The position numbers were made by a program, and so were the translations under genes. A stretch of DNA of 64,000 nt from an uncultured Lentimicrobiaceae bacterium (GTDB taxonomy: Bacteria; Bacteroidota; Bacteroidia; Bacteroidales; WCHB1-69). The notes under the pieces are model-generated. The model saw only the letters and a program-made list of their open reading frames with translations, did no database searches and was not told where the DNA came from. Location: NCBI GenBank assembly GCA_964653595.1, contig CAZZHH010000011.1, positions 2,178 through 66,177 on the forward strand, written 5' to 3'. This document shows positions 5,175 through 52,636 of this stretch, one piece after another (the first letter of the stretch is position 1; every line of letters starts with the position of its first letter).

Positions 5175-6377
5175 ATGGAATTTTTATCACAAAGAGTTAT
5201 CCAAATGGCAGAGTCTGAGACCCTAGCCATGACTCGCATTGCACGCGAGATGAAAAGTCAAGGCATTGATGTAATAAGTCTGAGCATCGGTGAGCCCGAC
5301 TTCAACACTCCGGAAATTGTTAAAGAATCTGGGAAAAAAGCCATCGACGAGAACTACTCACACTATGCGCCAGTTCCTGGCTATCTTGATTTACGTCAAG
5401 CCATATGTGCGAAATTAAAAAGAGACAACAATTTAGAATACACTCCCGAACAAATTGTAGTTTCTACAGGAGCAAAGCAGTCTATCGCTAATTTGGCACT
5501 ATCGGTAATCAACCCTGGCGACGAAATTATTATTCCAACACCATATTGGGTATCTTACAAAGAAATTGTAAAATTAGCCGAAGGGAAACCAATATACGTT
5601 CGCTGTTCTATTGAAAACGATTTTAAAGTTACCGCACAACAGTTAGAAGAAGCGATTACCCCAAAAACAAAAATGATTATGTTTAGCAGCCCTTCTAACC
5701 CTACAGGGATGTTATATTCACAATCTGAGTTGGAAGCATTAGCTAAAGTAATCGAGAAACATCCTCATGTATTGGTAATGGCAGACGAGATTTATGAGCA
5801 CATCAATTTCGAGGGCAAACATCAAAGTATTGGTCAGTTCAGCTCGATTAAAGACCAAGTAATCACCATCAATGGAGTTGCTAAAGGCTTTGCCATGACT
5901 GGATGGAGAATTGGTTACCTTGCTGCAGCACTTCCTATCGCAAAAGCATGCGACAAAATTCAAGGACAAATCACTTCTGCCACTTGCTCTATTGCACAAA
6001 GAGCTACCATTACTGCTATGGAGATTAACCCAATAGAAGATAATTATATTCAAACCATGAAAAACACATTCATGGAGCGTAGAGATATTATGTATAAGTT
6101 GCTTAAAGAGATTCCAGGGATGAAGGTAAATTTACCTCAAGGTGCTTTTTACTTTTTCCCTGAAATAAAAAGTTACTTTGGAAAATCGCATGGCAAATAT
6201 TCTATTTCAAACAGTAATGACTTATGTATGTACCTTCTCTACGAAGGACACGTAGCTCTTGTTCCTGGAGATGCTTTTGGCGATCCTGATTGCATTCGTC
6301 TATCGTATGCCGCAGCTACAAACACCTTAATAGAAGCTATCGAAAGAATAAAAAAAGCATTGGCATTGCTTAAATAG
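5175..6377 (+). CDS. aspC: PLP-dependent aminotransferase class I/II (aspartate aminotransferase-like)
   Basis: GEPDF, GAKQS, PSNPTG, DEIYE, and PLP-lysine motif NGVAKGFAMTGWRIG. Confidence 0.88.
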   Translation: MEFLSQRVIQMAESETLAMTRIAREMKSQGIDVISLSIGEPDFNTPEIVKESGKKAIDENYSHYAPVPGYLDLRQAICAKLKRDNNLEYTPEQIVVSTGAKQSIANLALSVINPGDEIIIPTPYWVSYKEIVKLAEGKPIYVRCSIENDFKVTAQQLEEAITPKTKMIMFSSPSNPTGMLYSQSELEALAKVIEKHPHVLVMADEIYEHINFEGKHQSIGQFSSIKDQVITINGVAKGFAMTGWRIGYLAAALPIAKACDKIQGQITSATCSIAQRATITAMEINPIEDNYIQTMKNTFMERRDIMYKLLKEIPGMKVNLPQGAFYFFPEIKSYFGKSHGKYSISNSNDLCMYLLYEGHVALVPGDAFGDPDCIRLSYAAATNTLIEAIERIKKALALLK

Positions 6378-9344: not shown

Positions 9345-9644
9345 ACAATTATTTAGTTATTTGATTATTAATTACATTGACAATAGCTCACAAAAATAAG
9401 AGTTTTCTTTAATATACAAAAAGTTATTAGCCAAAATCACACTTTTTCCAACTGTCATAACCTTTAATCTCGATTAACAACCACATTCATACTTTTTTTT
9501 AAGATAATGCGTTAACTAATTTATACCAAACATCCACAATTATGAAACGAGCCATATAAAATCATTACAATCAAGGGAATGTTTATTGGCGTTCTGATAG
9601 CTATCGGAATCCTAACGACCTTATAATAATAAAAAAATAAATGT

Positions 9645-10264
9645 ATGAAAAAGATAATGCTAATGACACTTCTTTTTTTGACTCACATTTGTGAGGGTCA
9701 GGGAATGCCAACCAAAAATTCAGATGCCGGAATCTTTTCACTTGGTGTAAGAAGTGCCATTGGCATTGTAAACGATGGTAAATGGCAAACACCGGCATTT
9801 GGTACCGGGGGCAATTTCGGTTGAAATTTGGAAATAGAGTCAATACCGAATGGTTTGCCGACTTTTTAACGGCTGATTTAGCTGATTTTGGCTACAGAAC
9901 CGACATTCATATCGGATGGAGCGTTATGTACTATTTATTAAACAAACCTAACTCCTTTTTTAAACCCTATGTTTTGGCAGGCCACTGTTTTGAATATCTA
10001 AAATTTTCGGACAACCGCGATGAGCATAATTTTGCAGAACGATGGAGTTCATCTATACAAGGAGGAGTAGGCACACAAATCAACCTTTCTTCGAGCGTAA
10101 ACGTGTCCCTTTCTGCACAATACATGTTGCACTTTGGGACAAAAATTGCCTACATTAAGGAGGGAAACAACTCAATCCAATTTTTGAAATCCAAGAATTC
10201 GGGAATACACGACCATATTTTAATTGCATTAAGTATTAACTATAAAATTGCTGACTTATGGTAA
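9645..10264 (+). pseudogene. Outer-membrane beta-barrel-like protein split by a one-base frameshift (or sequencing error)
   Basis: ATG 9645 gives signal peptide MKKIMLMTLLFLTHICEGQ... to FGTGG, then a stop at 9822-9824. Adding one G to the G5 run at 9807-9811 joins it to ORF 9782-10264 (QFRLKFGNRVNTEWFADF...), which has alternating beta-strand patterns and terminal aromatic residues. Confidence 0.7.
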
Positions 10265-25820: not shown

Positions 25821-26585
25821 TTGAATAGATTTATCAATCGATACAGGATACTATTTTCTAAGGATAAAGAGCTTTACAGCTATTTAAAAAATATTTTTGG
25901 GATTAATCCCAAAAATATTTTTTTATATAAGTTAGCTTTTACTCACAAATCGGGCAATTATCAAACAAAATCTGGTCAGCGATTTAACAATGAGAGGCTA
26001 GAATATTTGGGAGATGCCATATTAGGTGGAATTGTTGCCACTTATCTTTTCAAAAAATACCCCACTGCGGATGAAGGGTTTCTATCAGAAACACGATCTA
26101 AAATTGTGAAAAGAGACCATTTAAATAAATTATCTGCAAAAATTGGACTCTCCTCTTTTATCAATAAAAAAAATGACAATTTATTCTACAAATCTATAAA
26201 TGGGGATGTTTTTGAGGCATTTATAGGAGCATTGTACCTAGACAGGGGTTACAACTATACCTATAAAATTATCACTTCCCATATTATTCCTAAGTGGGTA
26301 GATATTGAAGGGTTGTTGAAAACGGAGACAAATTATAAGAGTAGAATTATTGAACATACTCAAAAACACAAACAAACCATTGAGTTTAAAGTTGTTGACA
26401 TTAAAGAGATTGGCAAGCGAAAAGAGTATTGTGTTGAGGTGTTGATAGATGGTGAAGCAATTGCTACTGGTATTGATTTGTCAATAAAAAGCGCTGAACA
26501 AATAGCAGCCGAGCATGCATTTTCTAAATTATATTCGCATACCACCACCAATCAAGAATTCTTATCAACAGAGCTCTCTTCATAA
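25821..26585 (+). CDS. rnc: Ribonuclease III
   Basis: NERLEYLGDAILG signature, GDVFEAFIGALYLD, C-terminal dsRBD; TTG start. Confidence 0.95.
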   Translation: MNRFINRYRILFSKDKELYSYLKNIFGINPKNIFLYKLAFTHKSGNYQTKSGQRFNNERLEYLGDAILGGIVATYLFKKYPTADEGFLSETRSKIVKRDHLNKLSAKIGLSSFINKKNDNLFYKSINGDVFEAFIGALYLDRGYNYTYKIITSHIIPKWVDIEGLLKTETNYKSRIIEHTQKHKQTIEFKVVDIKEIGKRKEYCVEVLIDGEAIATGIDLSIKSAEQIAAEHAFSKLYSHTTTNQEFLSTELSS

Positions 26586-30523: not shown

Positions 30524-30600
30524 GGCCCCGTAGCTCAACTGAATAGAGTATCTGACTACGGATCAGAAGGTTTCAGGTTTGAATCCTGACGGGGTCACCA
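30524..30600 (+). tRNA. tRNA-Arg (anticodon ACG)
   Basis: Cloverleaf: acceptor GGCCCCG/CGGGGTC, D-arm GCTC/GAGT, anticodon stem TCTGA-CTACGGA-TCAGA, T-arm TCAGG-TTTGAAT-CCTGA, encoded CCA. Confidence 0.97.
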
Positions 30601-30860: not shown

Positions 30861-32966
30861 ATGCATAGCATTAATTCGTTAAACGAGAAAATTCTCTCGG
30901 AATTAATTGAGATTGCTGAAGGATTGAAAATTCCAAAAGCCTCAAAATTAACTAAACAAGATTTAATTTACAAAATACTCGACCATCAAGCGCTCAATCC
31001 TAGTCAAGAAATTATCGATCAAGAGCGAAAAAACATACCACATAAGCGAGCAAGAAAGACTGAAAAGAGACCTATTGCTTCTTCCAGTAGCTCAAAAAGC
31101 ACGAACAATATTGTAAAGACCTTACCACAAAAAGAGGAGACCTCAACTCAGAAGAAGCCATCCCCTTTGAAGGATTCAGAAAAACCGACTCTCTCAAACA
31201 ATGAAAAACCGACAAGCAGAGCAGAGGAGAACAAAGAAGCTAAGTTTATAAAAAAAACCAACCCACAAATCCAAAAACCAAACGAACCAAAAGAGCAACC
31301 TAATATAGGGAAGGAAGAGATTGTTAAAAAACAAATCCCTGTTCATTACGACAAAAAGAAGATATTATTAGAAGATATTATCATTGACGATACAATCATT
31401 CTCGACGCTCCAACCAACTCTGGTGAATTATCAGATATTATAGATGACAACATTCATATTTCAACTTCCAAAGAAGATTTGATTATTGACCAACCGGTAT
31501 CATCGGATATAATAGAGGATCAATCTTCCATTACAAATGAGGTAGTAGATTCACTTCAAGAGTCTGAGATAAAAACAGTTCCTATATCTGCTGTCAAAAC
31601 AAACAACAAAAACAACAAACAAAACAAGTGGGATAAAAATCGGCAAAAAGGGAGTCAGGATAAAAGACGCGATCAAGACCAGACTTCCAAAAACGACAGA
31701 ACTGCAAATGAGAATCTTCCTGCAAATGAGGACAAAAATAAACCTCAGCCAAAAGCAAGCTCAACGGAAGCTGAAGGCACCATTGCATCTGAAAACGAAA
31801 ATTCTAAAGAAACGGTAACAGTTGTACAACCTGAGCAGGTTATAGAATTTGACGGCACCGTATATTGCGAGGGAGTTTTAGAAATCATTAATGAAGGGTA
31901 TGGATTTTTGCGTTCTTCGGACTATATGTATTTGAGTTCCCCAGATGATGTTTATGTCTCTCAATCGCAGATTAAACATTTTGGATTAAAAACTGGAGAC
32001 ACTGTTCGCGGTATGGTTCGTCCACCGAAAGAGGGTGAGAAATATTTTCCGTTGATAAAAGTAGAAATGTTAAATGGCAGACTACCTGAAGAGGTAAGAG
32101 ACAGAGTGCCGTTTGATTTTTTAACACCCCTTTTTCCAGATGAGAAGTTAAACTTAACGGGTCATCCTACCGAGACTTTATCGTCGCGAGTTATCGACCT
32201 TTTTGCACCTATTGGCAAAGGACAACGCGGATTAATTGTTGCTCAACCAAAAACGGGCAAGACAATGCTTTTAAAAGAGATTGCAAACGCAATTGCTTAC
32301 AATCATCCAGAAGTATATCTTATTGTACTGTTGATAGATGAGAGACCCGAGGAGGTTACAGATATGGAGCGTAGTGTGAAAGCAGAAGTGGTAGCATCTA
32401 CTTTTGATGAGCCAGCAGATCGTCATGTAAAAATATCCAATATCGTTCTTGAAAAGGCAAAAAGATTGGTAGAGTGTGGACATGATGTGTGTATCCTTTT
32501 AGATTCTATCACACGACTTGCCAGAGCGCACAACACCGTTGCTCCAGCTTCTGGAAAAGTACTTTCAGGCGGAGTGGAAGCAAATGCTTTACAAAAACCT
32601 AAGCGTTTCTTTGGTGCAGCTCGAAAAATTGAAAATGGAGGTTCTCTTACCATTATAGCTACTGCTCTTACAGATACCGGGTCAAAAATGGATGAGGTAA
32701 TTTTCGAAGAGTTTAAAGGAACAGGTAACATGGAACTTCAATTGGATAGAAGGTTATCCAACAAGCGCGTTTACCCAGCTGTTGATATTGTATCATCTAG
32801 TACCCGTAGAGATGATTTACTTCACAAACGAGACACCTTACAACGTTTATGGATTTTGAGAAACCATCTTGCAGACATGAATACGACTGAAGCGATGGAA
32901 TTTATCAAAGACAGAATGAAATTCTCGAAAGATAACGATGAATTTCTTTCCAATATGAACAACTAA
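30861..32966 (+). CDS. rho: Transcription termination factor Rho with long N-terminal low-complexity insertion
   Basis: Rho_N ([13 protein letters not shown]), GVLEI...[56 protein letters not shown]. Confidence 0.97.
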
Positions 32967-37871: not shown

Positions 37872-39083
37872 ATGAACTTTTTAGAGATAGATAAATTATT
37901 ATCGTTTGCCCCCATCCTGCAATCGGTGATTTTTTTCCTTCTGTTTATCTCACTTTACTTTGCTAATCGGGAGCGACATTTTTTATTTATTGCATTTTAC
38001 AAATTTTTCTTGACTTTGTTTTTTGTGATGACATTTATGTTTTTTTACAAAATCCAGCAAGTGGTTGCAATATCGTTTTATTTGACCATCCCAGTAACTT
38101 TGGCATTGATTCCTCTATTATACATGTATGCCGACTGTTTAACAACACCATGCCGTAGTTTTAAGGCATCGGGGTGGTTACATTTTTTACCATCCATTGT
38201 TATGGCAATTGCAATGTTGCCCTATTTATGGGTTCCCTATCAAGAAAAGGTTTGGTTTGTAAGTGGAGGATATGGAAATTCTGAAAACGAATGGATCATT
38301 AAATACATTACCTGGATATTCAGATTTGGAGTTTTTGCAATCATTAATATTCAATTAATAGTATACTTATTTCTTTTCCAACGACTTATCAAGCAACACA
38401 AGAAAAAGATCCAACAACTATTCGCATACACCGAAAACATCAACCTAGCATGGTTATTTAATCTATTTCTAGGTTTCTTTATCTTTTTTATAATCCTTTA
38501 TGCCTCGCGATTTTTTGAGATTCGTTCCGACATCAACAATCGAATAATCTTCAACATGGGTTTTATTGTCATTAATCTTTACATAGGGATAAAAGGAGTA
38601 ATTCAGCCCAATGTATATAGTTTGATAAAGAGTGATGATCAGATAGTTGAAAGCTTTACCATCGCTGAATTTGATGAAAATGATAGCAAATTGGATGATT
38701 CTAAAGACGAAGTCTCAAAATATGCAACCTCAAAGCTTTCTGTTGATTTACGAAATCAGATAAAAGTTGAGTTAATGGAATACATGAAGCAAAAACCGTA
38801 TCATAAATTAAATTTCAACATTGAAGATATAGCCGATGCTTTAAAGACAAACACGCGATACATATCTCAAGTAATCAACGAAACTTTTGAACTGAATTTT
38901 TTCAATTTTGTGAATAATTATCGAATTGAAGAGGCAAAAGAGATATTAAAATCTAAAGATTCGGAAAAATACACTATCGAAGGGGTTGCAAAAATGGTAG
39001 GGTTTAACTCAAAATCTTCTTTCAACAACGCCTTTAAAAGAAGTACCGGATTAACTCCCTCCGAATTTAAAAAGAACACATAA
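37872..39083 (+). CDS. Membrane-anchored AraC family transcriptional regulator (multi-TM sensor + HTH)
   Basis: About seven hydrophobic segments, then AraC HTH (NTRYISQVIN, FVNNYRIEEAK, VGFNSKSSFNNAFKRSTGLTPSEF). Confidence 0.92.
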   Translation: MNFLEIDKLLSFAPILQSVIFFLLFISLYFANRERHFLFIAFYKFFLTLFFVMTFMFFYKIQQVVAISFYLTIPVTLALIPLLYMYADCLTTPCRSFKASGWLHFLPSIVMAIAMLPYLWVPYQEKVWFVSGGYGNSENEWIIKYITWIFRFGVFAIINIQLIVYLFLFQRLIKQHKKKIQQLFAYTENINLAWLFNLFLGFFIFFIILYASRFFEIRSDINNRIIFNMGFIVINLYIGIKGVIQPNVYSLIKSDDQIVESFTIAEFDENDSKLDDSKDEVSKYATSKLSVDLRNQIKVELMEYMKQKPYHKLNFNIEDIADALKTNTRYISQVINETFELNFFNFVNNYRIEEAKEILKSKDSEKYTIEGVAKMVGFNSKSSFNNAFKRSTGLTPSEFKKNT

Positions 39084-39314
39084 AATTCTTCCAAAAAACA
39101 TTTTCTAAGATTGAATTTCTCACCTGAATTGGACATTTTTATTATTTTAGTGTTCATCGACCATGATTTCATAAACATTTGACAATAAACATATTGCATA
39201 TAAATATTGTACAGATACAGAAACTCAAACAACCTTTATTTATATAAATAGTCAACATCCTCTAATTTTGTATAAGAAAAAACATTTAGCCTTAAACAAA
39301 AATTTTGGATAGAC

Positions 39315-42300
39315 ATGAAACGATTAAAACACATTTGGCTTTTATCATGTACAATATTTGCTCTTAGTATAACAGCACAAAGCTATGTAGAGATAGGTAC
39401 AGGAACCATAAGCACTTCTTATCCCACTTATTCGGTATGGAACAATGGATGGTTTAGCATGATCCAACCACAATCGGCAGTAGGGCCAGCAAAAACCATT
39501 ACAAAAATTGCCTTTAACTGCATCAATGGGCCTAAAACAAGTGTAAACCAAAAAATATACTTAAAACACACCTCTGCTTCCATTTTTGGGGATGCCAGTT
39601 ACGAAAATCCGAGCACAAACGGATACACCTTAGTATATGATGGCGCAATCAATTACAATGGATGGACAGAAATTACCTTATTAACTCCATTTTCCTATAA
39701 TGGCATCGATCATTTGATCATACATTATGAAAACAGGTCGAATTCGGCAAATTATGCCAATTTTGCATCCACAGCATCCGTCACAAACAACAATAAAGGT
39801 GCTGGCAATGACGCTAGTTTTCCGACTGGTTCTGGTTATTTAAACCCTTATCCTTCTAGTTTACCAAATGTTCGTTTATATTATGCTTCTACTGGACCAG
39901 CAACACCAGCAAACCCAATTCCAGCAGTGAATGCACAGAAAGTAAATTTAAATATTCAACCTACTTTTGAATTAGGAACAAATACTACTTCATACGATGT
40001 ATATCTTTCCACCGATTCAGCATCCGTAGCATCTTCAAACAGCAGTGCTTTAGTAGCTTCAAACATAGCGATTTCAACAGCGGGAACCTATAGCTACACT
40101 CCATCCAATATTTTAGCCGCGTCTACTAATTACTTTTGGAAAGTAATTGCAAAAGATGCAACCCTTAGTGAATCTTCTATCGTTTGGAAATTTACCACCC
40201 AAAATGTTATTTCAACGATGCCCTACACTCAGGGATTTGAAGGTCAAGATGTAATTTGGGATGGATATTATGGCATTAGTGATTGGAGTTATCCTACCAC
40301 TGGAAATGAGATGTTGTGGCATAAATCAAGTGTGGATTATGCCCGTAGTGGAAATAATTGCATGAAAGCAGATCCCTCCTCCTCGGTAGTTTCTGTATCA
40401 TCTACCCTTATGTCGCCACGCATATTCTTACCAACCAATCAGAGAATCTCCTTTTGGTGGCTCAATGGACAGTTAGCAAAGACATCTGGCAAAGACACTA
40501 CCTACTTTGAAGTGACTAACGATGGTGGCATAACTTGGACAACCTTAGAGATACTATCTCCTGCATCTGCACAAAATGCTTATATAAATGTGACCAAGGA
40601 TTTATCATTGTATGCGGGAAATAACACCTATATCCGCTGGAGATATGTGAAATCGGCTCTTGCTTCTTCCCCTACCTATATCGATGATATCGTAATTGAG
40701 CCTATCCCATCAGGTGCAATAATGGAATTAAGCAACACAACTTATACTTACACTCCGATATACAAAAATGCGCATACCAAAACACGCGTGGCCATCCGAA
40801 ACAACGGAACAACCAATTTAGTAGTAACGGGAGCAACCGTTTCCGCTCCCTATACTTGTACATACTCTGGAACAATACTTCCTGGCACATCCGATACTGC
40901 AACCATCGTTTTTGATGGAACAAATGTTGGTATTTTTAATCAACCACTCACCTTTAACAGTAATGGGACAGGTGCAAATACGGTTCAATTATCGGGTGAA
41001 GTAAAAGAATCTGTAAACTCATTTTACGAAACATTTGATGCAGTTTCGATAGGTCAGCTACCATTAAGCTGGAGTAAACTTCGAAGTGCTGATCCATATC
41101 AATCATTAAATGACATAGCAGTAAAATCGTCGAGTATAGATGCACATTCAGCGCCAAATGTGGTTAAAATGTACAACAACTCCGATTCAATTTCGTCCTT
41201 AATAATGCTCACTCCAGGTACCACAAACTTTGCAACAAACACATTTAAGTTTTGGGCTAGTAAAACCTGGGGCAACATAAATACAGTTGAATTAATTGTT
41301 GGATTAATGGACGATCCATATGATGCTACCTCTTTTGAGACAGTACAATCATTTACATTAGCAGACTCCATGGAGTTATTTTCATTAACTTTTAATCCTT
41401 CCAATTTAAAACCATACATCGCATTTAAACATGGCCAAAACAGGCAAATGCAAAGCATATGGGTAGATGACATTGAATGGCAAGGAATTATTAATCAACC
41501 TCCTTCTGCAGCAGCTGTTGTTTTTCCTGCAAACGACACCATCAATATTGAACAACTGGTTACACTGAAATGGACTGCTACGGGCGGAAACCCAACTGGA
41601 TATAAATTATACGTAGGCACCAATAATCCTCCAACAAACATGGTAAACGGAGTTGATTTAGGGAATGTGCTTCAATACGCTATTTCGAATGAGCTAGATT
41701 ATTCTACCAACTATTTTTGGAAAGTAGTACCTTATAACAATTTTGGAGATGCAACAACTTGTCCTATTTGGGAATTCAAGGTAATGGATGACCCAACTAT
41801 CACTGTTTACCCATGGAACGAAGGTTTTGAAAGTGTAACTCCAGGAGCAGGGTTTAACTATCCTTTGGGATGGAGAGTTATCAACAACAACGATGCATGG
41901 GCATGTTGGGATGTAATAGCCAACTCGCCTAGCAGTCCACAAAATGCACATTCTGGAAACCTAGGAATGCACACTGCATTTACCTACCTCAACCCTCAAA
42001 ACGACTGGTTGCTAACTCCTCCGATGATGCTTCAAAGTGGAACGACCTATCAATTTAGTTTCTGGTTGAAATCGCCATTCTATGTAGATAGCCAAACACA
42101 AGACACTACATTCGAAAAATTTGAAGTAATGTTTGGGAATGCCCCCATTACAGATAGTTTAAGCACGGTAATTTATCGCAATGAGACATTAAGAATACCA
42201 AATTACACTCAAATATCGCAAGTTATTACACCATCAACAACGGGGAAATATTATGTTGGTTTTCACACCTATAGTGAGCCATTACAATGGCTAGTAATTA

Positions 42301-42593
42301 TCGATGATGTCAGCATGAGTATTCTTCAAGGGGTAAGTGAGCATACATCTTCAAATGATATTTCAATATATCCAAATCCATCAAAAGGTGTATTTAATGT
42401 ACAGCTTAAAAACAACCTTGAACCAAATGCCACTTTAAGGGTATTAAATACATTTGGGCAAGAAGTTTACAAAAATCCATTAACCTCAACTAATCACACC
42501 ATCAATATTTCTGGCTTATCAGATGGATTTTATTTCGTTAACATTCTAAATGGAAGCACCTCTTCCACCTTCAAAATCATCATCAAACAATAA
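39315..42593 (+). CDS. T9SS type A CTD protein, multi-domain adhesin-like (beta-sandwich, FN3-like, cleaved-adhesin/choice-of-anchor J-like, Ig-like)
   Basis: Signal peptide; repeated YFWKV..KFTT FN3-like modules; repeated PYTQGFE/SFYETFD/YPWNEGFE lectin-like modules; QNDWLLTP; CTD IYPNPSKG...LSDGFYFV. Confidence 0.85.
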   Translation: MKRLKHIWLLSCTIFALSITAQSYVEIGTGTISTSYPTYSVWNNGWFSMIQPQSAVGPAKTITKIAFNCINGPKTSVNQKIYLKHTSASIFGDASYENPSTNGYTLVYDGAINYNGWTEITLLTPFSYNGIDHLIIHYENRSNSANYANFASTASVTNNNKGAGNDASFPTGSGYLNPYPSSLPNVRLYYASTGPATPANPIPAVNAQKVNLNIQPTFELGTNTTSYDVYLSTDSASVASSNSSALVASNIAISTAGTYSYTPSNILAASTNYFWKVIAKDATLSESSIVWKFTTQNVISTMPYTQGFEGQDVIWDGYYGISDWSYPTTGNEMLWHKSSVDYARSGNNCMKADPSSSVVSVSSTLMSPRIFLPTNQRISFWWLNGQLAKTSGKDTTYFEVTNDGGITWTTLEILSPASAQNAYINVTKDLSLYAGNNTYIRWRYVKSALASSPTYIDDIVIEPIPSGAIMELSNTTYTYTPIYKNAHTKTRVAIRNNGTTNLVVTGATVSAPYTCTYSGTILPGTSDTATIVFDGTNVGIFNQPLTFNSNGTGANTVQLSGEVKESVNSFYETFDAVSIGQLPLSWSKLRSADPYQSLNDIAVKSSSIDAHSAPNVVKMYNNSDSISSLIMLTPGTTNFATNTFKFWASKTWGNINTVELIVGLMDDPYDATSFETVQSFTLADSMELFSLTFNPSNLKPYIAFKHGQNRQMQSIWVDDIEWQGIINQPPSAAAVVFPANDTINIEQLVTLKWTATGGNPTGYKLYVGTNNPPTNMVNGVDLGNVLQYAISNELDYSTNYFWKVVPYNNFGDATTCPIWEFKVMDDPTITVYPWNEGFESVTPGAGFNYPLGWRVINNNDAWACWDVIANSPSSPQNAHSGNLGMHTAFTYLNPQNDWLLTPPMMLQSGTTYQFSFWLKSPFYVDSQTQDTTFEKFEVMFGNAPITDSLSTVIYRNETLRIPNYTQISQVITPSTTGKYYVGFHTYSEPLQWLVIIDDVSMSILQGVSEHTSSNDISIYPNPSKGVFNVQLKNNLEPNATLRVLNTFGQEVYKNPLTSTNHTINISGLSDGFYFVNILNGSTSSTFKIIIKQ

Positions 42594-42622
42594 TCCCTAT
42601 ATTCCCTTTGTTAGATGAATGT

Positions 42623-42650
42623 AAGCGACCAAATACGGTCGCTTTTTTTT
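42623..42650 (+). terminator. Intrinsic terminator
   Basis: AAGCGACC-aaatac-GGTCGCTT followed by a T-run. Confidence 0.8.
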
Positions 42651-42842
42651 GTACTATAAAATATTTACCTAATCCGAAGAAGACTAGCCTCCAACAGCTT
42701 TGTCTTACAGAGCCACCCTAATGGTGGAGAAGCATCTGTACCGAAAAAGCAGGGTAAGAACATGGGTCTTCTAGTAGCGATTTTGGCATAAAAACCGCTT
42801 TGTTTCGCAGCAATTTTTTCGCCAAAATCGAGTTGGTTGTTG

Positions 42843-43160
42843 GCCTATTAACCCCACGCTCCGCGTGAGGTTAATAGGCTTCGACCCCTTCGGGGCCGTG
42901 GCTTCGCAAGTCGTACAACCATGTTCGACCCCTTCGGGGCCGTGTCTGGGCATCTTATCCAGACTTTTCTGCACCTTCGGTGCCCTGGGATTCGGAAGTT
43001 TGACCACTTTGTTCGACGCCTTCGGCGCTGGGGCTTTGCAACTTCATTGGGACTATTCTACGCCTTCGGCGCCATGGCTTCGCAATCTGAACGTGACCTG
43101 TTCGGCGCCTTCTGAGTCAGAGATTCGCAACTTAAAGCACCTGATTCGGGGCCATCAGTA
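42843..43160. repeat. GC-rich REP/BIME-like cluster: one 17-bp hairpin plus seven ~44-nt degenerate tandem units
   Basis: Hairpin GCCTATTAACCCCACGC-tcc-GCGTGAGGTTAATAGGC (42843-42879). Units start at 42880, 42924, 42967, 43012, 43056, 43101 and 43145, with consensus TTCGAC(C/G)CCTTCGG(G/C)GCC.TGGCTTCGCAA plus a 14-15 nt variable segment. Confidence 0.8.
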
Positions 43161-43419
43161 ATGGAAATTCACAACATGGATAAACACTATGGATGGCCTT
43201 AGATGGTCGGAGCATCTCAATAGGATTAAACCTATTATTTAGTATTCGGCACCAAGTATAACTTATAATGATTTTTTTAAAAAAGCAACAAACGTTAGAA
43301 ATTTTTCAGTCAATACCGATAATGAAAGAACAATTAATCGCTGAAAACACACAATCTATGAGGAATATTGTTCTTTATTTTCGAAAAAATCCGTAAATTG
43401 CGTTCCAAAAAACTCAATA

Positions 43420-45036
43420 ATGAATAAATTATCCTTTAAACATCTGACAATCATACTAATTATATGCCTTTTAACTTTTTCTAGCAAAGGTCAATCCTTA
43501 GATAACAAAAAGGTAATTAAATATAACAATTGGCATAATGCAGATTTGAAAAAAGACAAAAAAAATGGAGTTTCTACCGATCTGGCATATTCTGATCTAT
43601 TATCCCACAAAAAATCAACTCCAATTATAGTGGCAGTAATTGACGGAGGAGTAGATATTTATCACGAAGATCTGAAAGAAGTTATTTGGAATAATCCCAA
43701 TGAAATACCAGATAATGGCATCGATGATGACAAAAATGGGTTTATCGACGACATACATGGATGGAGTTTTTTAGGAGTTGGACCCAAAGGGAGTTTAATT
43801 TATGATAATTTAGAAATTACTAGAGAATATAAGCGGTTAAAGCAAAAATTTGAAAACCAAAAGTTAGATCGATTATCTAAGTCGGATAGTATAGAATACA
43901 ACTACTTTTTGAAAATAAAAGAAAAGTACACAAAGGAGAGCTTGAATGCAGAAACGATGTACAATTTTTTTGTAAAAATTAAAGATGATTGGGATATTTC
44001 AACCTCAGATATTAAGTTACATTTGAAGAAAGATACGATCACATTAAAAGACGTAAAAGCCTTAAAAGCCGAATCAGGAAGTGCAATCCAATATTCCAGA
44101 GACTATTTGTTGACATTGATGAGACAAGGAGTAACTTCTGAGGAGATAAATACATCCTATAACCACTTTGAAGGTCTTTATAAATACCACTACAATCTCG
44201 GATATGAAGGCCGTTTGGAAGTTGGCGACAATCCATTGAATTTTAGCGACATCCACTACGGAAATAAGGATGTTAAAGGGAATAGACCTTCGCATGGTAC
44301 TTTTATAGCAGGGATAATTGCAGCCAAAAGAGATAATAACATAGGGATAAATGGCATAGCAGATAATGTGAAAATTATGTCGTTGGTAGTGGTCCCCGAT
44401 GGCGATGAGCGAGACAAAGATGTTGCTCTAGCAATAAGATATGCAACCGATAATGGTGCAAAAATCATCAACATGAGTTTTGGCAAAGATTATTCGCCCA
44501 ACAAAAAAGAAGTGGTTGAAGCAATCGAATATGCAGCTGCACATAATGTTTTGCTAGTTCATGCTGCTGGCAATGATGCTACAAGTAATGACACCATAAT
44601 CAAATTTCCTTCTCTGCCCCAAACGAGTGTAGCAACCAAATCCTTTATTGTAGTAGGTGCCTCAACAATTTATAAAAACAAAAAAATACCAGCAGATTTT
44701 TCTAATTATGGAATAAATAGTGTAGATATTTTTGCACCTGGAGAAGATATTTACTCTACAAACCCCGAAAACACCTATGAGATTGGAAGTGGAACTAGCT
44801 TTGCATGTCCAGTCGTTTCTGGCGTTGCAGCATTGTTATGGTCCTATTACCCAAATCTTAGCTCAAAACAAGTAAAAGAAATTTTGATGAAATCAGGGGT
44901 GAGTTTTGCAAACAAACAAGTGTTACTTCCTAACCCCTATGGACTAAAAAAACTTAAAATTGATTTTGGCAAGTTATCTATTTCTGGCAAAATTGTAAAT
45001 GCCTACAACGCACTAAAAATGGCAGAAACATACTAG
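43420..45036 (+). CDS. S8 (subtilisin-like) serine peptidase, secreted
   Basis: Triad VAVIDGG (D), HGTFIAG (H), GTSFACP (S), oxyanion AAGND; helical insert between D and H typical of Bacteroidetes S8 enzymes. Confidence 0.93.
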   Translation: MNKLSFKHLTIILIICLLTFSSKGQSLDNKKVIKYNNWHNADLKKDKKNGVSTDLAYSDLLSHKKSTPIIVAVIDGGVDIYHEDLKEVIWNNPNEIPDNGIDDDKNGFIDDIHGWSFLGVGPKGSLIYDNLEITREYKRLKQKFENQKLDRLSKSDSIEYNYFLKIKEKYTKESLNAETMYNFFVKIKDDWDISTSDIKLHLKKDTITLKDVKALKAESGSAIQYSRDYLLTLMRQGVTSEEINTSYNHFEGLYKYHYNLGYEGRLEVGDNPLNFSDIHYGNKDVKGNRPSHGTFIAGIIAAKRDNNIGINGIADNVKIMSLVVVPDGDERDKDVALAIRYATDNGAKIINMSFGKDYSPNKKEVVEAIEYAAAHNVLLVHAAGNDATSNDTIIKFPSLPQTSVATKSFIVVGASTIYKNKKIPADFSNYGINSVDIFAPGEDIYSTNPENTYEIGSGTSFACPVVSGVAALLWSYYPNLSSKQVKEILMKSGVSFANKQVLLPNPYGLKKLKIDFGKLSISGKIVNAYNALKMAETY

Positions 45037-50626: not shown

Positions 50627-52636
50627 TTATCTAAATGAAATATCTCTCCAACAAGTAGATACAGCATCATAAATCAAAGTTATCGAATGATTTGGTGGTA
50701 ATAAAATGTCCGCAGCAGTACTAAACATGAATTGATTTGGAACAAGGCTCGACATGTTTTGATGTTGTAAATTAACATTATTGACACCAACGTTGGTAAT
50801 AATTAATATTTTTCCATCACTACCATTGGTTAGTCCAGAGATATTTCGTAGTGCATCACTCGATAAGCGAATAAAAGACTTATCGTCTACAAAGAAATTA
50901 TTAACATCTGCAGTTAACTGAGCTAATGTTTTTGCCCTTAAAGCGACATCTCCATTTACGTCCAATTTTGCATTTGGTGCATTGGTTCCGATACCTACTT
51001 TTTGGAAATCATCTTCATAAATTTCGGAACATATTGCAACGGTTCCATCATTTTTAATTAAGAAGTTTGCGTTATTGCAACCCACAGGACCTACATCTCC
51101 TTGAGGGCCTTCATTTCCTTGAGGGCCTTGAGGACCAGCGGGACCAGCAGGACCTTGAGGACCTTGAGGACCTTGAGGTCCATCTACCCCATTAGAGCCA
51201 TTCACACCGGGCAATCCTTGTGGACCAGAAGGACCAGCTAAGTTAACACATGTATAAGTTAAATCTCCTACTACCCTAACACAAAGCTCGGTTGCATTCC
51301 AATAATACTCTATGCTATTTCCGTCGTTACCTGAAGGACCTTGGGGGCCATCTACCCCTTGAGGACCATCGGCACCCTGAGGACCTTGAGGACCATCGGC
51401 GCCAGTTGGACCAATAGGGCCTTGAGGACCTTGAGGTCCATCTACCCCATTAGAGCCATTCACACCGGGCAATCCTTGAGGACCGGTAGGTCCAACCAAA
51501 TTGACACAAGTATAAGTTGGATCTCCTGCTACTCTAACACAAAGTTCGGTTGCATTCCAATAATACTCTATACTATTTCCTATTGGACCTTGAATACCCA
51601 CTGGACCCTCAGGGCCGCGTAAATTATTAATAATGGTATCTTGTCCATTTATCAAAATCAAACTATCCCCAGTAACCGACCACTCAAAGTTGTAACCCAA
51701 CCAATAGCAAGTAAAAGGGGAACCTATCGTATCTACACGAACACACAAAGAGTCGGCATGCCATTCGTAAATAAGTCCTGGACCTTGGGGACCTGCAACA
51801 CCAATTGGTCCTTGAGGACCTTCAGGGCCTCGTAAATTATTTACAATGGTATCTTGTCCATTTATCAAAATCAAACTATCTCCCGTAATAGACCATTCAA
51901 AGTTGTAACCCAACCAATAACAGGTAAATGGGGAATCTAAAGTATCGACGCGAACACATAATGAGTCGGCATGCCATTCGTAAATAAGTCCTGGACCTTG
52001 GGGACCTGCAACACCAATTGGTCCTTGAGGACCTTCGGGGCCACGTAAGTTGCCAATAATAGTATCTGTTCCATTCATCATTATCAAACTATCCCCAGTA
52101 ACCGACCACTCAAAACTATAACCTAGCCAATAACAAGTAAAAGGAGAATTCAAAGTATCTACGCGAACACATAAAGAGTCGTTGTGCCATTCGTACAACA
52201 AACCAGTCCCAGGAGCGCCATCTAAACCAGTAGGGCCAATTGGGCCTGCGACACCAGTATCCCCTTGTGGACCTTGAGGGCCAGCAATACCTCCATTACA
52301 TAGCGAAAACCAACATTCAGTGGGGTTTACAGCGATGCCTTTTCTCCAGACATATACACATTTATTGTCCGTATCATATACCATTAATCCACTTGCTCTA
52401 TTGTCGGAAGCAGCTGGAGTTATTGCTAATCGTTGAATGGAGTCCATACGAGGAATTAAAAAACCTTTATCGTTAGCATAAACTTCCAATGCAGCACTCA
52501 TATGAGGAGGCATTTGACTTGCCAAATTGCCGATAAACACTCCTTTTCCGTTTTGTGCGTATCCAGAAACCAGGATAAACATAAAAACGAGAAAGAAAAA
52601 TTTATGTTTCAACTGTTGTTTGATTATTAATTTCAT
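50627..52636 (-). CDS. Secreted collagen-like, phage-tail-fibre-like protein
   Basis: Signal peptide; SAALEV..KGFLIPRM domain; interrupted Gly-X-Y tracts with repeated Cys-pair modules; VGIGTNAPNAKLDVNG; beta-rich C-terminal domain. Confidence 0.8.
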   Translation of the reverse strand: MKLIIKQQLKHKFFFLVFMFILVSGYAQNGKGVFIGNLASQMPPHMSAALEVYANDKGFLIPRMDSIQRLAITPAASDNRASGLMVYDTDNKCVYVWRKGIAVNPTECWFSLCNGGIAGPQGPQGDTGVAGPIGPTGLDGAPGTGLLYEWHNDSLCVRVDTLNSPFTCYWLGYSFEWSVTGDSLIMMNGTDTIIGNLRGPEGPQGPIGVAGPQGPGLIYEWHADSLCVRVDTLDSPFTCYWLGYNFEWSITGDSLILINGQDTIVNNLRGPEGPQGPIGVAGPQGPGLIYEWHADSLCVRVDTIGSPFTCYWLGYNFEWSVTGDSLILINGQDTIINNLRGPEGPVGIQGPIGNSIEYYWNATELCVRVAGDPTYTCVNLVGPTGPQGLPGVNGSNGVDGPQGPQGPIGPTGADGPQGPQGADGPQGVDGPQGPSGNDGNSIEYYWNATELCVRVVGDLTYTCVNLAGPSGPQGLPGVNGSNGVDGPQGPQGPQGPAGPAGPQGPQGNEGPQGDVGPVGCNNANFLIKNDGTVAICSEIYEDDFQKVGIGTNAPNAKLDVNGDVALRAKTLAQLTADVNNFFVDDKSFIRLSSDALRNISGLTNGSDGKILIITNVGVNNVNLQHQNMSSLVPNQFMFSTAADILLPPNHSITLIYDAVSTCWRDISFR
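51080..52280 (-). repeat. Intragenic tandem repeats: three 213-nt units and two units 258 nt apart
   Basis: GAGTCG..TGCCATTCGTA anchors at 51750, 51963 and 52176 (period 213). CATCTACCCCATTAGAGCCATTCACACCGGGCAATCCTTG at 51181 and 51439 (offset 258). Confidence 0.9.

Follow-up and report, generated by a model that had tools for sequence, protein, structure and literature searches.

Introduction

The BOX element of Streptococcus pneumoniae carries a variable number of 45-nt boxB units between a boxA and a boxC module, is folded and transcribed, and holds accidental open reading frames (ORFs) (PMC3049150). BrickBuilt of Porphyromonas gingivalis consists of a leader, a 23-nt minisatellite and a tail; it occurs in about 19 intergenic copies with 1–23 units, often beside peptidase genes and genes for cargo of the type IX secretion system (T9SS) (PMC4596501). 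Repetitive extragenic palindromic sequences (REPs) are imperfect palindromes of 20–40 nt with many copies per genome, which typically flank the gene of a REP-associated tyrosine transposase (RAYT). One end of the palindrome carries a conserved tetranucleotide, GTAG or CGTC (PMC3733652). The guide RNAs of the dCas12f–sigma-E systems of Bacteroidota are 85–105 nt long, combine a scaffold with a 14–16 nt guide, and are encoded beside rpoE-dcas12f (PMC13472631). Here we compare with these systems a hairpin repeat element that lies upstream of an S8 peptidase gene in the genome of an uncultured Lentimicrobiaceae bacterium (Bacteroidota). It was analysed within a 64,000-nt stretch of DNA, hereafter the window (GenBank assembly GCA_964653595.1, contig CAZZHH010000011.1, positions 2,178 to 66,177), and all positions below are those of the window.

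The segment that begins at 42678 or 42770 and ends at about 43250 probably represents a single copy of a modular, non-coding interspersed repeat, lineage-specific and belonging to an uncultured wastewater Bacteroidota. The repeat family is undescribed and has a few dozen copies in the genome, while its architecture, a leader followed by a hairpin minisatellite, is already known from BOX and BrickBuilt. The element is multi-copy in one genome, the number of its units varies between copies, the content of its array differs between strains, and its hairpin and box are constrained.

Results

A multi-copy core with variable extensions

For DNA, depth refers to Logan word depth in six wastewater or bioreactor metagenome runs from five studies (X1, X2, X3, X4, X5 and X7). 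Positions 42770–42945 reach a depth of 50–565 in these runs, against 3–14 for the flanking genes. This excess, 10–45-fold overall, is seen run by run: about 25-fold in X1, up to 46-fold in X2, about 11-fold in X3, about 30-fold in X4, 25–41-fold in X7 and 3–10-fold in X5. Depth over hairpin 1 is 244–453 in X2, where the organism itself stands at 9.85, and 565 in X7, against 13.7. Single-copy contigs approaching from the left stop at 42800 and those on the right begin at 42913, which, with 31-mers, places the common stretch at about 42770–42943. The 175 nt of 42770–42945 comprise the GTAG-tagged hairpin 1, hairpin 2, unit 1 and the head of unit 2.

Pieces of other copies lie on contigs with the depth of the organism. 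Two come from X2 (2206 nt at depth 9.88 and 2923 nt at 8.55; organism 9.85) and one from X7 (14,419 nt at 13.4; organism 13.7). The X7 contig opens with a piece resembling 42872–42944 and closes with one resembling 42727–42801, so its two termini represent two further copies, 14.3 kb apart and in equal orientation. On the left, other copies start at 42770 or at 42734, and one of them has an unrelated A+T-rich flank up to 42769. On the right, beyond 42898–42911, they diverge either into A+T-rich unique DNA or into a different linker and another unit, as in the continuing copy that reads CTTCAATTGGATTA-TTCGACGCCTTCGGGG. The family is therefore modular: a core of about 130 nt is followed by one to at least seven units and may be preceded by an upstream module. 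Since internal units of other arrays and the arms of the palindromes may inflate depth, we put the copy number at roughly 15–45.

The preliminary description of this locus had called the array an orphan that begins at 42880. Both points need correction: leader and first unit are present at roughly 15–45 copies per genome equivalent, as judged from depth and from the contigs at organism depth, and the feature begins about 110–200 nt further left.

Organization of the element

The features of the element and its two neighbouring genes are collected in Table 1. The intergenic region that holds the element spans 42594–43419 between two plus-strand genes.

Table 1. Features of the repeat element and its immediate neighbours, in window coordinates.
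Feature	Position	Strand	Description
1092-aa T9SS-sorted protein gene	39315-42593	+	Por_Secre_tail domain
Intrinsic terminator of the upstream gene	42623-42650	+	Strong; 8-bp stem and T run; left limit of the element's intergenic region
Module 0 (optional, upstream)	42678-42769		G+C-enriched; closed-domain fold; present in only some other copies
Left end of the high-copy core	42770-42777	+	TCTAGTAG; GTAG at 42774-42777 abuts hairpin 1
Hairpin 1	42778-42830		22-position imperfect palindrome; perfect 10-bp outer stem CGATTTTGGC/GCCAAAATCG; highest-copy segment
Hairpin 2	42843-42879		17-bp palindrome (94%), loop TCC; one C.A mismatch in this copy (42868 A)
Unit 1	42880-42923	+	TTCGACCCCTTCGGGGCCGTG GCTTCGCAA and linker; hairpin and box 2 lie in the high-copy core; copies with a single unit stop at 42900-42910
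Unit 2	42924-42966	+	First 21 nt identical to unit 1 and marking the right limit of the high-copy stretch (about 42945); box 2 lost
Unit 3	42967-43011	+	Stem GCACC/GGTGC; box 2 GATTCGGAA
Unit 4	43012-43055	+	Stem CGCC/GGCG; box 2 GCTTTGCAA
Unit 5	43056-43100	+	Stem CGCC/GGCG; box 2 GCTTCGCAA; 26/30 identical to unit 1
Unit 6	43101-43144	+	Decayed hairpin (CCTTCTG); box 2 GATTCGCAA
Unit 7	43145-43188	+	Remnant TTCGGGGCC...AATTCACAA; runs into motif GATAAACAC
Tail	43189-43250		Single-copy depth; alleles identical from 43211 on
S8 peptidase gene	43420-45036	+	

Module 0 is intermediate in abundance, with a depth at 42730–42769 of 2.5–4.5 times that of the flank. Its fragment AAGCATCTGTACCGANAAAGC is nested in an alternative allele of the array (L001 101–122). 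In hairpin 1, three A.C mismatches of the plus strand become G.U pairs on the minus strand. In hairpin 2, G is the majority letter at 42868 in X1, X2, X3, X4 and X7 and gives a perfect stem.

The right side of the element is less clearly bounded. The region 43146–43250 stands at single-copy depth, a measure that sees copies of 85–90% likeness or better and no tails more divergent than that. The tail contains an A+T hairpin at 43219–43237, which is broken in the Logan contig L002 by the change of AATAGG to AATATA at 43223–43227 (L002 235–239; also in run X7), so even members of the species do not all keep this hairpin. Terminal inverted repeats were not found: the left end, TCTAGTAGCGATTTTGG, has no complementarity to the right ends at 42900–42910 or 43250.

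The hairpin-and-box array

A repeat search returned six in-register copies of 30 nt, starting at 42880, 42924, 42967, 43012, 43056 and 43101 and thus spaced 44, 43, 45, 44 and 45 nt apart, with the other units 63–87% identical to unit 1. A seventh unit at 43145 is a remnant which retains only TTCGGGGCC and a trace of box 2. Tandem Repeats Finder (TRF) at score 30 left the array undetected, consistent with its degeneracy. An 88-nt higher-order period hinted at by the repeat search received no support from the unit-by-unit identity matrix.

Each unit follows one plan: a hairpin NNNCC-TTC-GGNNN, then the box G(C/A)TT(C/T)G(C/G)AA (box 2, present in five of the seven units), then a linker of 13–15 nt. 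The hairpin can be read as a triloop or as a CUUCG pentaloop with its closing pair open. All units run head to tail, and the array has 13 TTCG and no CGAA. The signature TTCNNCNCCTTCGGNG has five exact matches and one with a single mismatch, every one inside the array, a count that none of 100 shuffles reached. Nine CCTTCGG occur on the plus strand of the window, five of them in the array at spacings of 44, 43, 45 and 44 nt. The motif GATAAACAC comes after the last unit both in the window array and in the alternative allele. As a side observation, the linker of unit 2 (42944–42964, plus strand) forms a 7-bp hairpin followed by TTTTCT and thus resembles an intrinsic terminator; it lies exactly at the end of the high-copy part.

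G+C content is 56% over 42880–43144 and 49% over 42650–43250, against 35.5% for the window, with a peak of 63% per 100 nt. Much of the preliminary description is borne out by these results. The seven-unit array of about 44-nt period is real, as six in-register units and the remnant, at the positions it had given; so are the match of units 1 and 5 at 26 of 30 nt, the second box in most units, and the G+C-rich block between a terminator and the S8 gene, both of which are confirmed as neighbours. The decay of units 6 and 7 was also seen, and its likening to the polarity of old arrays is merely descriptive.

Array replacement between strains

Four Logan contigs (L001–L004) encode an identical S8 protein. 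Two of them, L003 and L004, equal the window from 42913, and independent Logan contigs reproduce 42913–43700 exactly. The other two, L001 and L002, are identical to the window from 43211 rightwards and over 42911–42940; between these identical stretches they have an array of 219 nt that differs from the 270 nt of the window. This alternative array is partly related to that of the window, with units like 2/3, 4 and 6, and it nests pieces of the upstream module and of the right arm of hairpin 2. Identity between the alleles drops sharply from 100% to about 75% at 43210/43211, as would be expected if a paralogous copy had replaced the array.

The linkers recur as related subtypes across the window, the alternative allele and other copies: one set reads CTTCATTGGGACTA / CCATAATGGGACTG / CTTCATCCGAACTA, and another GTTTGACCACTTTG / GTTTGACCACTC / GTTTAGCCACCCTA. 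Because of this recurrence, the 13–15 nt segments are fast-evolving linkers rather than acquired spacers. When ten linkers were compared with the window, allowing up to two mismatches, only two-mismatch matches at chance level appeared.

Constraint on the hairpins and strand bias

Conservation along the unit is bimodal. Mean pairwise identity is 0.70 in columns 1–30 and 0.30 in columns 31–43. No other circular partition of the columns gives so extreme a contrast, and uniform neutral decay of a simple duplication would not yield such a pattern. Covariation was assessed in eight distinct units, five from the window (units 1–6, of which 1 and 2 are identical over 21 nt) and three from the alternative allele. 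The stem series is as it had been described, with CCCC/GGGG, GCACC/GGTGC and CGCC/GGCG among the units. In the 7-pair stem, 75% of the cells pair, against 25–50% when the 3' partner is slid. A single stem position varies on both sides, as G-C, C-G and A-U, and the covariation score of 0.199, against 0.117 for shuffled units, was reached in six of 500 shuffles. The unit hairpin is maintained; its covariation is real and exceeds the shuffles, though the statistical case is thin.

Mismatches in the stems are unevenly divided between the strands. Read on the plus strand they comprise ten A.C and two G.T, with p = 0.04 on an assumption of independence that the mismatches do not fully meet, and the A.C mismatches are G.U or G.T wobbles on the minus strand. 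The fold of the core is likewise more stable on the minus strand (–73.0 kcal/mol, z –7.6) than on the plus strand (–61.7, z –5.2), and 42766–42925 folds much better than its shuffles on either strand and also as DNA. Such observations suggest that it is on the minus strand that the hairpins count, as a single strand of either RNA or DNA, which is a lean and not a proof.

The intergenic region has a sole near-consensus promoter of the Bacteroidota type, at 43227–43256 on the minus strand (TTG, 19 nt, TAGGTTTA). This candidate (43234) points left into the array, and its transcript would diverge from the S8 gene. The promoter motif TAnnTTTG has no exact site on either strand of 42560–43440.

Coding potential and transcription

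The element encodes nothing. Two ORFs over the array have no Pfam match, and the minus-strand one has no homologue among 5.8 billion proteins, a search which also gave no candidate for another copy of the element. Against Rfam 15, at the gathering score and at E<=10, nothing relevant was found: the best match in 42500–43500 scored 22.8 bits where the threshold is 54.3, and the only passing match of the window is a tRNA-Arg at 30524. ARAGORN found no transfer-messenger RNA (tmRNA) or tRNA in the array region.

Contigs of the element are present in three metatranscriptomes (X18, X28 and X30) and in wastewater cDNA runs, so the element is transcribed at some level. These RNA runs are undirected contigs, and their signals carry no strand. 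In X18, the only contig within 20 kb is 42812–43047, with single-copy units included. In X28, the summed depth of the element is 25–64, against 0–3 for neighbouring genes; divided by about 30 copies, this is RNA not above that of the neighbouring genes. Two apparent transcript ends were discarded: a 5' end at 42679, where the contigs are of single-read size and similar ones are scattered across the whole window in those runs, and a sharp start at 42776–42780 in X28, where DNA assemblies break at the same place. In another contig of X28, 42849–42899 runs straight into an Illumina adapter. This implies that short inserts recurrently ended two bases past the unit-1 hairpin, perhaps at the end of an RNA from one copy, perhaps as an artefact of the library.

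Phylogenetic range and genomic context

The closest homologues of the S8 protein are 59–67% identical in amino acid sequence. Their loci in the relatives keep holin and PNPOx at the left and Cupin, GH25, HisPhos and SprB at the right, as in the window, and this synteny on both flanks argues against a chimeric join at the repeat in the window contig. The element is absent at the syntenic site in three loci of relatives at this S8 identity. In these relatives FTHFS lies between PNPOx and S8 (L179 7706–9376, L181 2240–5766), in L181 together with a PMT_2 glycosyltransferase; in the window 37872–42593 holds instead an AraC-family regulator and the 1092-aa T9SS-sorted protein which, with the repeat element, make a variable island in conserved synteny. 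Upstream of its S8 gene (67% identical), at 9480–9880, the nearest relative (L179, GCA_038240835.1) carries a degenerate repeat of a different kind, GGGCGAGGGGCAAAA ... GAAAATCA, present three to four times, and a Logan contig from another sample (L180) breaks inside it.

The hairpin-2 27-mer has no match in GTDB representative genomes or in JGI metagenomes, and blastn against phage and plasmid collections gave none. A 19-mer had eight matches in viral contigs, all unrelated high-G+C palindromes. Three CCTTCGG at a period of 42–46 nt occur at more than 119 loci in GTDB, none with the signature of the unit, and a two-unit pattern matched 47 loci in JGI metagenomes, mostly coding or chance. Tandem arrays of NNNCC-TTC-GGNNN, at periods of 21–22 or 42–48 nt, are present in many Bacteroidota genomes and metagenome contigs in scans that selected for the motif, such as a Cytophagales metagenome-assembled genome (L082; at 1601–2118 counted on the reverse strand, equal to 5761–6278 on the forward strand), L074, L078, L026, L025, L046, L063, L171 and L174. 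The nearest look-alikes (L171, L174, L167, L178 and L143) have the hairpin type in common with our element but not the leader, and homology is unproven. The closest, L171, has a 48-nt period, an identical 16-mer TTCGACCCCTTCGGGG and one unit in which the loop is flipped to GAA. As those scans selected for the motif, its recurrence may reflect a recurrent design or the selection itself.

Every window ORF of 130 aa or more (46 in all), together with small ORFs near the array, was compared with Pfam; they are housekeeping, secretion-related or regulatory. No transposase, RAYT (PF01797), reverse transcriptase, Cas protein or sigma-E/dCas12f pair is among the Pfam-scanned ORFs of the 64 kb.

Elsewhere in the window, 50627–52636 on the minus strand encodes a 669-aa protein with collagen triple-helix repeats and a weak match to a phage-depolymerase C-terminal domain. 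The gene contains a 213-nt tandem repeat in 2.8 copies (86% matches) and repeats of 9, 18 and 45 nt, at 51086–51449 and 51603–52195, and it is flanked by CHU_C/SprB-type genes for T9SS cargo. The Rho factor (30861–32966, 701 aa) has a long insertion between its N-terminal and RNA-binding domains, as is usual in Bacteroidota. The tRNA-Arg (ACG) at 30524–30600 lies just upstream of Rho, and RNase III is encoded at 25821–26585.

Discussion

In architecture the element is closest to BOX, to BrickBuilt and to clusters of REPs or bacterial interspersed mosaic elements (BIMEs), and not to a CRISPR-type or small-RNA system. Like BOX, it is dispersed, intergenic and non-coding, has a variable number of tandem internal units of about 45 nt that changes between strains, would fold strongly if transcribed, and carries accidental ORFs on both strands. 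BOX lacks clear terminal repeats and a target duplication, and neither was found here; no mobilising enzyme is identified for either element (PMC3049150). The two differ in sequence, with no relation, and in phylum; no boxC-like conserved 3' module is detectable here, and the internal unit of this element is itself a G+C hairpin with a polar TTC loop. BrickBuilt shares with it the phylum, a leader joined to a tandem minisatellite, a strictly intergenic position and a less conserved second half of the unit, and T9SS-sorted protein and peptidase genes often adjoin BrickBuilt copies, as they do at this locus (PMC4596501). However, the BrickBuilt unit is 23 nt without a hairpin and the ends are small inverted repeats, whereas our element has a 44-nt hairpin-built unit, a single-copy tail and no terminal inverted repeats that we could find.

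CRISPR arrays and the dCas12f guides offer a superficial likeness: a regularly spaced, partly palindromic repeat followed by a less conserved segment, with a variable part of about 14 nt that equals a dCas12f guide in length. Both fail on their defining features, which for CRISPR are near-identical repeats of 23–48 nt, unique spacers of much the same length and cas genes close by, and for the dCas12f guides RNA size and adjacent genes. The period is too short, the repeats are degenerate (63–87%), the would-be spacers are interrelated and each genome holds about 30 loci; the 64 kb contain no cas, dcas12f or rpoE gene, and the units measure 44 nt rather than 85–105 nt.

Several points weigh against reading the locus as a copy of an interspersed modular repeat. 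The copy number comes from Logan word depth and not from a finished genome, and the full sequence of another copy was not retrieved, so that other copies are known from contig pieces. A blastn-short search with 42650–43260 found no second copy in the 64-kb window, which is compatible with about one copy per 100 kb. No mobilising enzyme was identified, with none in the window, and the absence of terminal inverted repeats means that the element is not a textbook MITE (a miniature transposable element with inverted-repeat ends). No conserved tail module was found at 85–90% likeness or better. The bimodal conservation and the minus-strand G.U bias would equally fit a functional RNA, and RNA contigs of the element do exist, though not beyond what about 30 copies would give.

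The alternative that survives best, which we nevertheless regard as unlikely, is a true REP/BIME cluster. Under it the hairpins would be substrates of a single-copy RAYT, a Y1 HUH transposase encoded elsewhere, which would nick single-stranded DNA beside the hairpins and spread them, leaving a BIME-like array. The element resembles REPs in being made of extragenic G+C-rich imperfect palindromes at tens of copies, with G.T pairs in the stems and a strand-specific mismatch bias, and tandem-reiteration clusters of REPs are known. GTAG stands directly 5' of hairpin 1, the one leader hairpin so marked, a placement shared with GTAG-tagged REPs, which include members with long self-complementary loops (PMC3733652), and the hairpins are subterminal with no terminal inverted repeats at the ends, as in IS200/IS605-type elements. 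However, a lone GTAG beside one hairpin has a chance of about 1–5% once the choice of strand and hairpin is counted, and the strand that tolerates G.T (minus) differs from the one that reads 5'-GTAG-hairpin (plus). The 44-nt units have no GTAG or CGTC tag in REP orientation: their 5' flanks are TTCGAC, TTCTAC or TTCGGC, and their reverse strand gives stem-GTCG-3', the mirror of 5'-GTAG-stem. In addition, the units keep a fixed 44-nt period and a strict head-to-tail order, and such dimers are reported absent or rare for REPs; inverted pairs (head-head or tail-tail), the REP doublets forming hairpins (REPINs), predominate, whereas all seven units here run the same way. Copies number in the tens and not the hundreds, and none of the window's 46 ORFs of 130 aa or longer encodes a PF01797 protein. 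The preliminary description had favoured a dispersed repeat of the REP/BIME type over a gene, and had held that many dispersed copies next to a RAYT gene would make it an ordinary REP cluster. On dispersal it was right and dispersed copies do exist, but the units lack the tag and the inverted pairs, and the 64 kb contain no RAYT.

It is improbable, in our estimate, that the copies are genes of a multi-copy structured non-coding RNA, probably of the minus strand, in which a row of identical hairpin-plus-box modules binds or titrates a protein, serving as its sponge or scaffold, or yields short guides of about 44 nt on cleavage. The split between a constrained 30 nt and a loose 13–15 nt, the compensatory change at one stem position and the fact that, on the minus strand, almost every stem mismatch is G.U would be expected of such genes, and the sole near-consensus Bacteroidota promoter of the region (43234) is on that strand. 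Element contigs in three metatranscriptomes, in X18 as the only feature found in 20 kb, point the same way, and Bacteroidota do use tandem guide RNAs, of scaffold plus 14 nt, with dCas12f and sigma-E (PMC13472631). Yet those guides are 85–105 nt long and lie beside rpoE-dcas12f, while no partner gene is found here in 64 kb. The linkers are interrelated across copies and hence are not diverse guides, and none matches the window above chance; RNA depth per copy does not exceed that of neighbouring genes. The degenerate units (63–87%) decay along the array, strains with identical flanks have it replaced, and the element is not conserved in related genera and belongs to no Rfam family. The recurrent linker subtypes, the lack of a significant match in the window and RNA no higher than copy number gives also weaken the earlier suggestion of a small-RNA array with variable segments.

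It is very improbable that the array is a neutrally decaying, locus-specific tandem duplication (variable number tandem repeat, VNTR), or an artefact of chance or of assembly: although TRF does not score the array, units 6 and 7 are decayed and the window holds no other copy, the depth data contradict this reading, with the core at 10–45 times flank depth in six runs, and column conservation is strongly non-uniform, the motif count was reached by none of 100 shuffles, synteny with relatives extends over both flanks (left, holin-PNPOx; right, S8...Cupin-GH25) and independent Logan contigs reproduce 42913–43700 exactly.

For the modular interspersed repeat that we prefer, a plausible course can be outlined. 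The minisatellite may grow and shrink by slippage or unequal exchange, and arrays may be overwritten by recombination or gene conversion with paralogous copies; conversion from paralogues would explain the switch from 100% to about 75% identity at 43210/43211. The hairpins may persist because they work as single strands, and the mismatch pattern favours the minus strand. Their most likely role would be as transcript-end or insulating stem-loops upon intergenic transcription, as hairpins recognised by a trans-acting enzyme responsible for spreading the element, or as both.

If the minus-strand wobble bias does reflect selection on RNA, the family would be a candidate regulatory RNA. To our knowledge, few regulatory RNAs and RNA chaperones are known in Bacteroidota. 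A specific form of this idea, which we hold distinctly improbable, is that the roughly 30 copies are genes of a new class of structured RNA in Bacteroidota, transcribed from the minus strand, in which a conserved two-hairpin 3' module follows a variable number of identical 30-nt hairpin-and-box modules that load or titrate an RNA-binding protein or are processed to units of about 44 nt. Were this true, a repeat family would have been co-opted as a regulatory RNA system rather than persisting as selfish DNA.

Modular repeats bearing a minisatellite are well described in only a few cultured pathogens, the pneumococcus and P. gingivalis, and the present element adds one from an uncultured Bacteroidota of activated sludge. 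The repeat explains why short-read assemblies of this organism break at the locus. Its array content is a strain marker, differing between otherwise identical strains, and its copies flag about 30 loci at which recombination can reshuffle the genome.

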